Source: Phycisphaerae bacterium (GTDB lineage Bacteria; Planctomycetota; Phycisphaerae; Sedimentisphaerales; UBA12454). Taken from it: a stretch of DNA of 64,000 nt. Below, piece after piece: positions 13,683 through 61,743 of the stretch (within the stretch, counting starts at the first letter, position 1; every line of letters starts with the position of its first letter). The stretch lies in NCBI GenBank assembly GCA_041652575.1, contig JBAZHC010000008.1:46022-110021 (forward strand), in the 5' to 3' direction. A model generated the notes under the pieces. That model was not told the origin of the DNA, searched no databases, and saw only the letters and a program-made list of their open reading frames with translations. Made by a program: the position numbers and the translations under genes.

Positions 13683-13716
13683 TTAGTCCTTAGTTTTGAG
13701 TTTTTAGTTTTGAGTT
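13683..13716 (-). repeat. Heptamer tandem array, 3' arm of inverted pair
   Basis: Minus strand reads AACTCAA AACTAAA AACTCAA AACTAAG GACTAA. It contains the stop of the 106-aa ORF and the AAGGA RBS of nifU. Confidence 0.9.
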
Positions 13717-14010
13717 ATATACAATTACATCATCTTTTATTTTTTTACATTTTAAAATGGTGCACATTACACATACAAAAAAGAGAACACTATAAGCAAT
13801 TACAAAACTTAAAACAGATTGTAAATCTGGAAATTCTTTCTTATTCCACAATGGACTCATCAATATTACAAGATTTAAAATTATAGAAGCAATAACACTG
13901 AATAACCCTTTTGGAATACGACACAATTTAGCTATACAATAAAATAATATACCAAACAAAAGCCATACTATTGTCTGCCCCAACACTTGTGCTGCATAGG
14001 TCATCATCAT
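13690..14010 (-). CDS. Hypothetical small membrane protein (about 3 TM)
   Basis: 106 aa with three hydrophobic stretches. ATG overlaps the stop of the upstream gene (TAATG). Last codons (YNSKLKTQN*) are read through the heptamer array. Confidence 0.6.
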   Translation of the reverse strand: MMMTYAAQVLGQTIVWLLFGILFYCIAKLCRIPKGLFSVIASIILNLVILMSPLWNKKEFPDLQSVLSFVIAYSVLFFVCVMCTILKCKKIKDDVIVYNSKLKTQN

Positions 14011-14372
14011 TAGTTTCCCATCTGCATTTTTTCATTTCCTGTTTTAACAATACTCGTTAATATTTTTATAATTTCTAAAGATTCTTTTAATAAATATTCC
14101 ACACTAACATCACTGCAAATTTTGGCATCCTTAATCAGTCGTAACCAATAATTTGTTTCCCTTGCTTCTTTTGACGCTATACACATCTTTGCATAAAAAT
14201 CCCTTTGACTTTGTCCCGCCAATGCCTCTTCAACATTAGCGCCTATACTCGTCCCTGAACGCAAGAGTTGTTTCGCAATTTCAAAATGTTTTTCGTCTTT
14301 AAGTTGCTGGCAGAACCTAAGTATACTTAACGCGAATTTATAACTTTTTTCTTTAATTATACTCTTTGCCAT
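14010..14372 (-). CDS. Four-helix bundle protein (23S rRNA-IVS protein / TIGR02436-like family)
   Basis: KSYKFAL...QLLRSGTSIGANVEEA...SQRDFYAKMCIASKEARETNYWLRL family signature. Confidence 0.93.
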   Translation of the reverse strand: MAKSIIKEKSYKFALSILRFCQQLKDEKHFEIAKQLLRSGTSIGANVEEALAGQSQRDFYAKMCIASKEARETNYWLRLIKDAKICSDVSVEYLLKESLEIIKILTSIVKTGNEKMQMGN

Positions 14373-14378
14373 ATCGTC

Positions 14379-14420
14379 AACTCAAAACTTAGAACTCAAA
14401 ACTCAAGACTCCGAACTCTT
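14379..14420 (+). repeat. Heptamer tandem array, 5' arm of inverted pair (in mRNA orientation)
   Basis: Plus strand reads AACTCAA AACTTAG AACTCAA AACTCAA GACTCCG AACTCTT. It overlaps the metY stop codon (14403-14405). Confidence 0.9.
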
Positions 14421-58966: not shown

Positions 58967-60562
58967 ATGGTTTTTATTCTTCACAGATACATTTTTAGGG
59001 AATTGTTCAAGGTCTTTGCCCTTTCGGCGATGGCCCTTGGCGTTATCATGAGTCTGGGCAGTCTTTTGCGGCCCGTTCAGGAATATGGCGTTGGTCCTCG
59101 CCAGGTATTCGACCTGCTATGTTATTTTCTCCCGATAACGATGACATTTGTCCTGCCCGTTGCCGCCCTTTTCGCAACTTCCCTTGTGTACGGAAGAATT
59201 GCCGCCGACAACGAGTTCGACGCCTGCAAGGCAAGCGGAATAAGTCCTTCGATGCTTTTTTATCCCGCTCTTGTACTGGCGATTATAATTTCCATAGCCA
59301 ACTTACTGTTAAGTTTTCACGTCGTGCCCGCTTATGTCCAGCGAGCCGAAGCGGCCATGAAAGCCGATGCCAAGCAGATATTATTTCGAAATATCCAGCG
59401 GCAGGGTTACTATTCTCTGCCCGGCAGTCAATTCAGAATCTACGCCGACGCCGTCGACATCAAAAACTCCGGCCTGTTGGGCGTGGTAATTATTGACACC
59501 AGCAAAGACAAAGAAAAAAAACTTATCACCGCTGAATCCGCGACGGTAAATTTTGACAATACCGCCAAAACCAATGAGGTAAAGGTTTACGCCAAAAACG
59601 CTTTTCAGTTTGACGAGCAGGGTGGAATATTCGTCAAGGCGATTTCTGTGCTCGGCGACTTCCAGGCGCTTATGGGCGACGACGTAAAATTCCGGAAAAT
59701 AGAGCAGATGAACGCCATCAAGCTTTCACCTATGACTTACTATCCGATAGCTGTCTGCGCTTGGAACGCGTACGAACGGCTGACTACCGAAATGCTGTAT
59801 AAGGAAATAAAAAACGCTCTTAACGCCAAAACCGATAACTTTTACCAGTTGCATAACGACAATGCCCTGATTCGGTTTACCGGCGAAAAATGCCTGCTTA
59901 ATAGCGAACAGGACAACATAGAGCTTACCGGGAAAATCGTACTGTTTGAATACGACAAAAGCAGTGGTGAGCTTACAAGGAGCTATCGCGGCGAAAAACT
60001 CACCCTTCAGCTCTCCGCCGAAACCCAAACCAGGCCCAGTACGAAAATCGTACTTACACTTCCAAATGCAATCTGGCTCGACCGCGGCGTGGAATTTATA
60101 AAGCCCCGCTACTCGGCAAAGGAACTTGCCCTGCCGGATTCCATTGCTTCAAAACTCGGAGAAGACGTTATTACCACTGCCCAGGCCCACAGTTATATTA
60201 CCGCCCCATCGTCGAGGCTTGAAGAGCTTATCAAAGAAATGAAACGTAAAATCCGTGTAACGCTTTTCGAAATCAAGGCCGAAATTCATTCGAGACTCGT
60301 CTTTGGCATAGGCTGCATAACATTGATACTTATCGGCACTGAGCTTGGAATTATATTCAAAGGCGGGCATCTCCTGACTGCTTTCGGAATCAGTTCTATC
60401 CCCGCCGCCGCGCTGCTTGTCTTTATTATGGCCGGAAAAAACATAACGACAAATCAAAATTCTTCGGCAGGCGCCGATTTCGGCGTCTCGTTTATGTGGA
60501 CAGGACTGCTGATTCTGTCTATCTTCGCCGTTGTGTTTTACAGGAAATTATTAAAAAATTAA
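58967..60562 (+). CDS. lptF: LptF/LptG family permease (LptF-like)
   Basis: ILHRYIFREL, YGRIAADNEFDACKASGIS, periplasmic beta domain, EIHSR, C-terminal TMs; first of a tandem pair. Confidence 0.85.
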   Translation: MVFILHRYIFRELFKVFALSAMALGVIMSLGSLLRPVQEYGVGPRQVFDLLCYFLPITMTFVLPVAALFATSLVYGRIAADNEFDACKASGISPSMLFYPALVLAIIISIANLLLSFHVVPAYVQRAEAAMKADAKQILFRNIQRQGYYSLPGSQFRIYADAVDIKNSGLLGVVIIDTSKDKEKKLITAESATVNFDNTAKTNEVKVYAKNAFQFDEQGGIFVKAISVLGDFQALMGDDVKFRKIEQMNAIKLSPMTYYPIAVCAWNAYERLTTEMLYKEIKNALNAKTDNFYQLHNDNALIRFTGEKCLLNSEQDNIELTGKIVLFEYDKSSGELTRSYRGEKLTLQLSAETQTRPSTKIVLTLPNAIWLDRGVEFIKPRYSAKELALPDSIASKLGEDVITTAQAHSYITAPSSRLEELIKEMKRKIRVTLFEIKAEIHSRLVFGIGCITLILIGTELGIIFKGGHLLTAFGISSIPAAALLVFIMAGKNITTNQNSSAGADFGVSFMWTGLLILSIFAVVFYRKLLKN

Positions 60563-60565
60563 AAT

Positions 60566-61669
60566 ATGAAGACCCTTGATAAATATGTAATGAAAAACTT
60601 TCTCACAGGTTATCTGATTGCTTTCCTTGTGCTGATGGGGCTGCGCATAATGATAGACCTGTTCGTCAATGTCGACGAATTTACGGAAAATGCGCAGCTT
60701 ACATCCGTTCAGGTGCTGACAAATATCACGTCATATTACGGCAGATACAGTTTTCTGTACTTTCGTGACTTTGCCGGAATGATTACTGTCGTCGCGGCAG
60801 TGTTCTCGCTTGGAAAAATGACAAAAAACAACGAGCTGGTGGCCATAATGGCTTCCGGCGTAAGTCTCAAGCGGATGATAACACCTATTCTGGTTTTATC
60901 TCTTGCCTTCGCCGGCCTGCACGTAATCGACGAGGAACTTCTTATACCGCCGATGGCCGACAAACTTGTCCGCTCGCACGACGCTCTTGACGCGACTCTT
61001 TCTTATGATATGTGGTTCATCGGCGACAGCAGCGGCAACCTGTTCTGCTCCCCACAGTTCAAGGTACAGGACGGCATCATTATAAATCCGACAATAATAA
61101 CAAGAACCAGGAAGGGAAATTCCATACTCTGGGATGTTACAGGCATAATCAAAGCCGATTCCGCTCGTTACGACGATAATAAAAATTCATGGATTCTGGA
61201 TAACGGCGTGTTTCTGGCTGTATCGCAGAAGCTTGCCGACAAATCCTACCAAACGATAAAAACCTGTCCAAGCGACCTCACCCCGAAAGATATCCCCGTA
61301 AGGCGAAAATCAGCGCACATGGACCTGCTCAGTTCTTACGACCTTATAAAACTCGCCAGGCAGAGTCCCAAAGACCTCGCAAGACTCTACGCGCAGAAAA
61401 ACTTCCGTTTAACAGACCCCATAATAAATCTCATTATGCTTATGATTTCTCTGCCAGTACTTGTCTGCAGAGACCCGAAAAGTCTCAAATCTGCTGTCTT
61501 TATAAGTTTCGCCCTGACGGGCACCTGCTATATCCTGACTTTCGTAAGCAAAATCTTCGCCTCGGAAATAACTATAGCCGGCAGGGTTATGCCCGAATTG
61601 TGGGCCTGGCTGCCGATTTTCATCTTTCTGCCGATAGCCTTTATCGAGCTGGATTCAATGAAAACATAA
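60566..61669 (+). CDS. lptG: LptF/LptG family permease (LptG-like)
   Basis: TLDKYV, KNNELVAIMASGVSLKR, ADSARYD, WAWLP. Confidence 0.87.
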   Translation: MKTLDKYVMKNFLTGYLIAFLVLMGLRIMIDLFVNVDEFTENAQLTSVQVLTNITSYYGRYSFLYFRDFAGMITVVAAVFSLGKMTKNNELVAIMASGVSLKRMITPILVLSLAFAGLHVIDEELLIPPMADKLVRSHDALDATLSYDMWFIGDSSGNLFCSPQFKVQDGIIINPTIITRTRKGNSILWDVTGIIKADSARYDDNKNSWILDNGVFLAVSQKLADKSYQTIKTCPSDLTPKDIPVRRKSAHMDLLSSYDLIKLARQSPKDLARLYAQKNFRLTDPIINLIMLMISLPVLVCRDPKSLKSAVFISFALTGTCYILTFVSKIFASEITIAGRVMPELWAWLPIFIFLPIAFIELDSMKT

Positions 61670-61716
61670 AAGCCGCCAAAAAAAAATTGCATTTTAAATT
61701 TTTAATTCTAAATTAT

Positions 61717-61743
61717 CTTAGTGTCTTTGTGCCTTAGTGGCTA
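61717..61743. repeat. Solo octamer-array arm (copy 3)
   Basis: CTTAGTGT CTTTGTGC CTTAGTGG CTA directly before the TAAGGA RBS; no left arm seen. Confidence 0.8.

Follow-up and report, generated by a model that had tools for sequence, protein, structure and literature searches.

What are the short-period repeat arrays that lie between the genes of this planctomycete, and what are they doing at operon junctions? The DNA considered here, referred to as the window, is a stretch of 64,000 nucleotides (nt) at C8:46022-110021 of a 2.98-Mb, 44% GC assembly from an uncultivated member of the Sedimentisphaerales (Phycisphaerae, Planctomycetota). G000 denotes the genome of the window and C its contigs, and other G and L numbers denote the genomes and loci of relatives. 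An initial annotation had proposed that seven places in the window share one grammar, tandem 7-, 8- or 9-nt units forming inverted arms, and belong to a single transposase-free family. We read the seven places directly and analysed the window with Tandem Repeats Finder. Six of them hold genuine arrays. At the remaining one, 38155 (38140-38190), Tandem Repeats Finder reports no tandem repeat, the genome holds no second copy, and we do not count it as a member. The repeat system itself is real, but its loci form two classes linked to different cargo genes rather than one.

Our interpretation, which we consider about evenly balanced between right and wrong, is that the loci represent two related families of small-gene cassettes together with their gene-less derivatives, and that the arms bind the cargo protein and serve the maintenance or spread of the cassette. 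The first class would consist of a four-helix-bundle gene (PF05635/TIGR02436) between inverted arrays of four to five heptamers. The second would consist of a GxxExxY gene (TIGR04256, PD-(D/E)XK-type) between arrays of 8- or 9-nt units that have a CRC-N-RAG or CRC-N-GATT core and a (T)TAGCCAC end. The association of genes with arms, the polarity of the arms, the co-orientation of the cargo, the turnover of junctions, the decay to gene-less forms and the absence of selection for pairing are all observed.

Cargo genes and their flanking arrays

The type of repeat unit is tied to the family of the enclosed gene, an association that the initial annotation had put forward as a check and that is borne out in this genome, in its relatives and in other phyla. 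Each of the nine TIGR02436 genes in this genome lies in heptamer arrays, mostly with a unit of their own at each locus (GGGTACA, GAAGATT twice, AAATCCG, AAAATNN, GGTAACN-like and AGTTTTG). All nine TIGR04256 genes lie in CAC-core arrays of period 8-9, some inverted and some direct, with the units CACAGAGNN, CACGAAGNN, CACGAATNN and CGCGGATTN. Arms of CACAGAGNN enclose GxxExxY genes at C10:61135, C2:180904 and C8:124350; further cargo between CACAGAG arms includes open reading frames (ORFs) that look HNH/AP2-like and T5orf172-like, by-eye assignments with no family match. The cargo is co-oriented with both neighbouring genes at eight of the nine four-helix-bundle loci and seven of the nine GxxExxY loci (15/18), which fits expression via read-through.

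In 24 relatives, a sense-orientation CRC-core array was found upstream of 20 of 30 GxxExxY genes, as against 6 of 175 control windows. The cross-phylum comparison comprised the 25 nearest analysed homologues of the window's four-helix-bundle protein (44-73% identity). These come from about ten phyla, including Planctomycetota, Nitrospirota, Verrucomicrobiota, Cyanobacteria, Bacteroidota, Gammaproteobacteria and Firmicutes, and lie at unrelated sites. In almost all of them the period is 7 on either side and the unit is of the TGARTTT type. When a strict pattern of three units is required, 15 of the 25 have an upstream sense array and 17 an inverted downstream array, and the pattern has few matches elsewhere in the 105 kb of their flanks. 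The polarity of the arms is fixed except at two loci, where both arms are reversed. Likeness of noncoding sequence over such distances implies selection, and this suggests that the arms are a functional partner of the gene. We also considered that the arms are templated from the target site, because the right arm of the window's cassette runs into native sequence; we dropped this idea, since the unit family follows the protein subfamily at unrelated sites in many phyla.

The cassette of the window lies between the genes for O-acetylhomoserine sulfhydrylase (metY) and nifU, and all of the genes are on the minus strand. Its upstream arm in the sense of the mRNA (14379-14410, minus strand) has four to five heptamers of the AGTNYTR type, and the outer part of this arm provides the final codons and the stop of metY. 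The downstream arm (13685-13716, minus strand), identified by Tandem Repeats Finder and by direct reading, consists of inverted heptamers and includes, in its last 20 nt or so, the nifU ribosome-binding site. The two arms (AGTTTTG/AACTCAA type) are complementary at 28 of 32 positions. Between them, the 120-aa four-helix-bundle gene (14010-14372, minus strand) matches TIGR02436 with an E-value of 1.6e-29 (102 bits, cut-off 24) and the Pfam family 23S_rRNA_IVP (PF05635) with an E-value of 3e-24 (85.7 bits, cut-off 33.8). Its closest solved relative is PDB 2RLD, which has five chains (E 4e-23). The initial annotation had described the cargo as a four-helix-bundle gene plus a membrane ORF, and only the former stands as a conserved part. 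The latter, a hydrophobic ORF of 106 aa (13690-14010, minus strand) that overlaps the stop of the four-helix-bundle gene, has no family match in profile searches, matched only itself in a word-limited search of 5.8 billion proteins, and is missing from all seven orthologous cassettes described below. It is an orphan and may be spurious or lineage-specific.

The GxxExxY cargo is absent from the window, where the second class is represented by arrays alone. An octamer hairpin without a gene lies 3' of tRNA-Arg (27201-27277) and reads TTAGC-(CACNAAGR)x3, a 22-nt A/T loop, the inverted array and GCTAA. The gap from pta to ligD-PE holds an outer nonamer hairpin, with a left arm at 28308-28327 (CGCTGATTA CACGGATTA) and a right arm at 28436-28456 (AATCAGCGT AATCTGTGA). 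In the loop of this hairpin is a purine-rich octamer foldback (28337-28422), single-copy in this genome, with AGGAAGCA-type arms at 28337-28372 and TTCCTTAC-type arms at 28388-28422. A composite nonamer element (30290-30433) fills the 144-nt gap from nfnA to nfnB; it is made up of a solo unit (30301-30313), a TTAGCCAC-(CACAGAGNN)x3 array (30325-30360) and a CACGGATT/CACTGT array with a GC hairpin (30370-30433). Between the genes for a HpnK-like deacetylase and a glycosyltransferase lies an octamer hairpin with a truncated left arm (57941-58011), whose loop resembles that of the copy at 27201, and a solo octamer arm, CTTAGTGTCTTTGTGCCTTAGTGGCTA, lies upstream of an aminotransferase ribosome-binding site (61717-61743). 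The L187 and L184 loci are full GxxExxY cassettes with octamer arms (...GTGCCTTAGTGGCTAA and ...CTTTGTGTCTTGGTGCCTTAGTGGCTAA) that are seen gene-less in the window, and at five further loci (L168, L174, L188, L191 and L193) GxxExxY genes are bordered by CRCNGATTA arms, the type seen in the outer hairpin of the window (28308-28456). These matches identify the window's 8- and 9-mer loci as gene-less forms of GxxExxY cassettes. Judged from sequence, then, the heptamer locus of the window is a four-helix-bundle cassette and its octamer and nonamer loci are gene-less GxxExxY forms.

Outside the window, at C20:2985-4835, a GGGTACA-armed four-helix-bundle cassette precedes a leuC-like gene, and 1.3 kb further downstream, past that gene, the same unit forms an empty hairpin (GGGTACAGGGGACAGGGTATAGGG...CCCTAAACCCTATACCC). 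Two junctions of one operon are thus occupied by the same unit family, once filled and once empty. The sole RNase III gene of the genome lies about 1.3 kb from a GAAGATT-armed four-helix-bundle cassette (C8:20186-20827 and C8:22118-22596), a proximity that may be due to chance.

Genome-wide arrays and turnover at orthologous junctions

The elements of the window are part of a genome- and order-wide system, as the initial annotation had supposed. In the whole genome we counted 304 non-AT arrays of period 7-9, as against about 38 after shuffling (31-42 across three locally shuffled copies), and 212 of them (70%) are intergenic, although intergenic DNA makes up only about 10% of the genome; the gene calls behind these figures are crude and cover about 90% of the DNA. 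Inverted arms are seen at the loci of the window, but genome-wide an inverted partner, at least 75% identical and no more than 1.5 kb away, accompanies only 56 of the 304 arrays (7 in reversed sequence, which served as the control for pairs and patterns), so that solo and direct arrangements are common. The sequences TTAGCCACAGAG and CTTAGTGGCTAA have 52 and 18 genomic copies (0.3 and 0.4 expected). The initial annotation had also noticed a TTAGCCAC terminus shared by the 8- and 9-mer types, and a list of all 126 such sites confirms that it is common to both. Of 41 relatives, 28 contain the 21-nt nonamer pattern TTAGCCACAGAGNNCACAGAG, among them members of other families of the order, and the reversed control has no match. 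Gene-less forms of the genome include 31 octamer hairpins and some 45 or more intergenic solo arms. Most of these lie within about 20 nt of the ORFs on both sides, in agreement with the proposed placement at gene junctions. Convergent gene pairs are enriched around the octamer hairpins (9/31), which have A/T-rich stems and loops of 20-29 nt.

Orthologous junctions, compared in 10-25 relatives, differ between species, again as had been expected. The nfnA|nfnB gap is 2-22 nt in ten of ten relatives, and the 144-nt element is present in the window's genome alone. At hpnK|glycosyltransferase the genes abut in five relatives, and one has an unrelated insert of about 100 nt. The pta|ligD-PE junction is empty in four relatives. 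It carries the outer nonamer hairpin alone at L029, L034 and L038, an AAATCCG heptamer hairpin in three relatives, a GAAGATT solo array in two, an AT-rich heptamer element in one, and the outer hairpin with the nested inner element in the window's genome. Five different unit families are thus found at this one junction across species, and the outer-only loci confirm the nesting at 28308-28456. An octamer hairpin lies at tRNA-Arg|pta in the window's genome and in 4 of 13 relatives, one of which has a compensated CCGC/GCGG end. At lptG|aminotransferase the relatives have an octamer arm opposite in orientation, nonamer arms, heptamer arrays or nothing; at L056, L062 and L063 a conserved insert of about 100 nt with a promoter-like TTGACT...CATATACT replaces the arrays. 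The occupancy of orthologous junctions therefore does turn over, and the full, empty, nested and solo forms distinguished by the initial annotation all exist, decayed forms (gene-less hairpins, solo arms and nested elements) among them.

The history of the metY|nifU cassette is of a different kind. In 17 relatives with the metY-nifU pair the four-helix-bundle gene is found in none, only in the window's genome. The empty sites carry heptamer-like sequence, and in close relatives this consists of the last 20 nt or so of the right arm (gctCAAAACTAAGGACTAAAAATatg). In G008 (L009) the right-arm heptamers are present without the gene inside a 150-nt insert, which also contains a nested palindrome of unrelated sequence (AAATGGGTACAGGC...GAGCCAGTCCCCATTT). 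The nearest homologues of the four-helix-bundle protein, however, are 65-73% identical, come from other genera and families (L136-L141 and L145), and occupy the metY|nifU junction too. These seven orthologous cassettes share the unit family of the window's, and in a MetY tree the filled sites (eight genomes) are dispersed over three clades. The identity of the four-helix-bundle proteins tracks that of MetY and NifU (Spearman 0.41 and 0.44; 0.42 for MetY versus NifU). The simplest reading of these sequences is that the cassette has long resided at this junction, co-diverging with its flanks and being lost repeatedly; repeated site-specific gain is a possible alternative. A free-standing homing endonuclease gene would be expected to fill one target in unrelated lineages and to have a phylogeny at odds with its host's; the filled sites are indeed scattered over three MetY clades, yet the cargo follows its flanks in identity, as vertical descent with losses predicts. 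Likewise, the 20-nt remnant of the right arm at empty sites would more simply be a deletion scar. We dropped recent insertion at this junction, given the seven orthologous cassettes in other genera and their co-divergence with the flanks, and the recent insertion that the word "colonising" in the initial annotation suggests finds no support here: the cassette appears to be ancient.

A separate observation concerns the flanking genes. In the MetY tree, L012 and L014 (G002 and G011, labelled as the same genus) fall in a different, well-supported clade from L001, the locus of the window's genome. Their NifU is nonetheless the most similar to that of the window (88-91%), and this suggests recombination or transfer within the metY-nifU region.

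Motif arrays or paired stems

The nearest described systems are the ORF-bearing intervening sequences (IVSs) of 23S rRNA in Coxiella burnetii and Leptospira (PMC4990558). They resemble the cassette of the window in their S23p/PF05635 cargo, in terminal inverted repeats around the ORF, in tandem heptamers by the start codon and in residence in sense within a transcribed unit. They differ in that the window's cassette lies between protein genes of an operon and not in helix 25 or 45 of 23S rRNA, in the imperfection of its arms, whose free positions show no covariation, and in the existence of a parallel class with nuclease cargo and 8/9-mer arms. We found no insertion in either helix: the cassette is at metY|nifU, and a search of the 64 kb against Rfam matched tRNA-Arg only, so that a known RNA family was rejected. 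The likeness raises the possibility of a similar RNA processing, in which the arms pair in the transcript and are cut by RNase III, which would excise the cassette or hairpin or divide the polycistron. In Coxiella, an S23p ORF, a 28-bp stem, tandem GACAGAT heptamers and RNase III excision occur together (PMC4990558). The near-complementary arms of the window's cassette, the co-orientation of cargo with the operon and the RNase III gene of the genome all agree with such a process, as does the nfnA|nfnB element, which folds better on the sense strand (-36.9 versus -23.9 kcal/mol).

If the arms were maintained as stems, whether for processing or, as the initial annotation proposed, as long mRNA stems that make insertions quiet, changes in one arm should be matched in the other. 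They are not. In the 31 octamer hairpins the CAC.AAG core is invariant, and the free positions of facing units form Watson-Crick pairs in only 28 of 155 cases, as against 53.5 +/- 6.2 for randomly re-paired arms. None of 20,000 permutations gave so low a value (P<5e-5), which means that the free positions are anti-complementary and that the octamer arms avoid pairing there. The stems are mismatched at every fourth pair, position 8 of the octamer alternates between A and G along an arm with the two arms out of phase, and at the free positions G·T and A·C are equally frequent (37 versus 43). In the eight orthologous heptamer cassettes the arms are 76-88% complementary, with the core kept and the mismatches at free positions; these cassettes show no compensatory change or covariation and no excess of G·U over A·C on the sense strand.

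Gene-less arrays have no preference for sense or antisense (13 versus 22; 24 versus 22). The folding of individual loci gives a mixed picture. The 27201-27277 hairpin folds alike on both strands (-28.3 and -29.2 kcal/mol). For the pta|ligD-PE element (28305-28452, the inner element with the greater part of the outer arms) it is the antisense strand that gives the more stable fold (-50.6 versus -37.3 kcal/mol), the opposite of the nfnA|nfnB element. All 713 co-directional intergenic regions of 50-450 nt are strongly structured, at about -0.21 kcal/mol per nt, and in them the sense strand is some 3 kcal/mol more stable than the antisense strand whether arrays are present or not. Since this bias is independent of the arrays, a G·U asymmetry at a single locus is no evidence for an RNA function. 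Solo and direct arrays, moreover, cannot form such stems at all. We therefore regard RNA processing of the IVS type as an unlikely explanation of these loci; because an RNase III is present, such a fate is possible for the better-paired heptamer stems. The sequence comparisons as a whole point to the arms being arrays of protein-binding motifs and not selected mRNA stems.

On this basis we return to the cassettes proposed at the outset. Each arm is predicted to be an array of binding sites for a multimeric cargo protein, perhaps with one unit per subunit, because the five chains of 2RLD match the four to five units of an arm. A four-helix-bundle homologue of Xanthomonas is a homopentamer according to a statement quoted in PMC4990558. 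The complex of protein and array would serve the cassette's own maintenance or spread, and in the second class the candidate activity is cleavage by the GxxExxY nuclease. Because they are read through from the operon and fit precisely into the space from a stop codon to the following ribosome-binding site, such cassettes could persist for long periods. Losses would leave behind gene-less arrays, and the majority of the genome's 7-9-nt periodic repeats may be of this origin.

Several points weigh against this interpretation. The four-helix-bundle protein is without a catalytic domain, so that the first class has no known mobilising enzyme, and some GxxExxY genes have direct rather than inverted arrays. 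Comparison with empty sites reveals no target-site duplication at nfnA|nfnB, hpnK|glycosyltransferase or metY|nifU, and the genome contains no near-identical copies of any element, the best full-length identity being 85-90%. In Logan contigs from four metagenome runs, searched over 12500-32000, there were no empty-site joints; the source population is the same as the window and the other runs are fragmentary, which makes this comparison uninformative about strain polymorphism in reads. With no duplications, no near-identical copies and no filled/empty polymorphism in the metagenome contigs, current movement is unsupported. The link between gene and arms could also come from common descent, the arms being kept for another reason such as RNA processing. 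Finally, the metY|nifU cassette behaves like a stable gene passed on vertically, and such behaviour would suit a domesticated function no less than a selfish one.

Other repeat systems and the wider setting

Paired arrays of this kind have been described before without a cargo gene. In Geobacter metallireducens, "global regulator binding sites" of classes 1-3 and heptanucleotide elements were reported, with one array pair lying between proB and proA (Aklujkar et al. 2009, PMC2700814). As here, they are pairs of three to five tandem units (7, 8 or 8-9 nt) on opposite strands at a variable distance, multi-copy and intergenic; they have other units (GTTGCTYN, TCTCCGTS and MTYCTGA), no cargo gene is described, and they are read as IHF/HU sites. 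Heptamers are also known from Xanthomonas (GGGAATC) and Nostoc (GGGGAYT) and as cyanobacterial heptanucleotide repeats (Rehm et al. 2015, PMC4692102). These too are intergenic tandem arrays, often convergent inverted pairs (70-75 of them in Xanthomonas), near the upstream ORF and mostly between co-directional genes. They have been read as G-quadruplex formers with no reported link to a four-helix-bundle gene, and most units in the present genome are not G-rich.

These precedents allow an explanation in terms of ordinary host features, in which repeats born by slippage are kept as terminators, mRNA stabilisers or sites for DNA-bending regulators, and small genes are tolerated at such spots. The enrichment of hairpins between convergent genes and the heptamer-like sequence already present at empty metY|nifU sites are in its favour. 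The terminator hairpins that the initial annotation named as the alternative do not bear it out, as none of the hairpins scores as an intrinsic terminator. No element was called in 26500-31000, and we rejected an intrinsic terminator for these A/T-rich stems, mismatched as they are and with loops of 20-29 nt. Five unit families at the single pta|ligD-PE junction are a misfit with a conserved regulatory need. Nor do host features account for unit families tied to two specific gene families across phyla, or for a 21-nt nonamer pattern conserved in tens of copies across families of the order. We consider this explanation quite improbable.

The third possibility involves transposases. Repetitive extragenic palindromes (REPs) are moved by RAYTs (REP-associated tyrosine transposases). 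The gene-less TTAGCCAC-ended hairpins might be moved in trans by Y1 (HUH) transposases in the manner of REPs or REPINs, with the cargo genes as passengers. The description of the system as transposase-free holds for the elements, which encode no transposase and whose cargo genes are not transposases, but not for the genome, which has six Y1_Tnp-like (HUH) genes (G000 C6:124720, C15:43846, C3:79470, C11:100848, C14:39666 and C4:138006). The hairpins beside these genes are GC-rich and have TTAGCC...GGCTAA feet, which the 8/9-mer elements share, and the arrangement resembles the class 3 Y1 systems of Planctomycetes, whose atypical flanking hairpins have been described (PMC6006769). There is a further likeness to REPs and REPINs with their RAYT or class 3 Y1 genes (PMC6006769): the hairpins are intergenic, occur in many copies with a conserved foot and are enriched between convergent genes, a gene family present in single copy has its own repeats on either side, and gene-less copies far outnumber gene-bearing ones. 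The arms here are nevertheless periodic arrays, the associated proteins are a four-helix bundle and a nuclease of the PD-(D/E)XK type and not HUH enzymes, and the local Y1 genes have other hairpins. Y1 genes are found in 39 of 41 relatives whether nonamers are present or not, and the two counts are unrelated when Y1 subfamilies are pooled (for example, 34 arrays and 2 Y1 genes, 0 arrays and 9, or 4 arrays and 0). With octamer or nonamer arrays flanking none of the six Y1 genes, counts that do not follow each other and arms that accompany GxxExxY genes across phyla, mobilisation by Y1 transposases is very doubtful.

Bacterial miniature inverted-repeat transposable elements such as Correia, RUP and Nezha are small foldbacks that occur in tens of copies at gene junctions and are tolerated in transcripts. 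The elements of the window resemble them as small foldback elements in tens of copies at gene junctions, and differ in having arms of 7-9-nt units and in that we found neither a transposase-bearing parent insertion sequence nor a target-site duplication.

In a full-text search of the literature, no paper links either protein family to flanking arrays at operon junctions; the layout appears only as fragments, in the papers on IVSs, Geobacter and Xanthomonas. To our knowledge, intergenic heptamer, octamer and nonamer arrays have been noticed since the 1990s and never explained. If our interpretation of the cassettes is correct, it would explain them, it would give two very large families of unknown function, PF05635 and GxxExxY, a testable partner in their own flanking arrays, and it would connect the IVSs of 23S rRNA with a much wider habit of residing between operon genes. 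Avd, a relative of PF05635, is the accessory protein of diversity-generating retroelements. Annotators should not assume by default that such arrays are terminators or regulator sites, and a small protein able to read a programmable array of 7-9-nt units would be of interest to engineers.

A broader proposal, which we advance tentatively and with more doubt than confidence, is that PF05635 and GxxExxY proteins may be unit-reading trans factors of one large and so far undescribed superfamily of minimal elements, each a multimer of about 120-aa subunits with arrays of its own motif, residing at cistron boundaries and in rRNA helices. Their relics would make up most of the unexplained 7-9-nt intergenic repeats of bacteria, including the cyanobacterial and Xanthomonas heptamers and the Geobacter "regulator sites". 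Mismatch at the free positions might keep the arrays readable by protein and prevent cleavable double-stranded RNA or cruciforms.

Two minor observations concern the composition of the arrays. The heptamer units AAACCCT/AGGGTTT (nine arrays) and ACCCTAT (seven arrays) look like plant-type telomere repeats, which is probably a coincidence of the GGG-core unit family. In many TTAGCCAC-CACAGAG arrays (G000 C6:98069, C6:141426, C9:20546, C19:48079, C19:51541, C22:1862 and others) the array is broken up by a GC-rich hairpin, for example CCTGCCTTCG...CTACGGCAAGGCAGG, an arrangement suggestive of one repeat family inserting into another.

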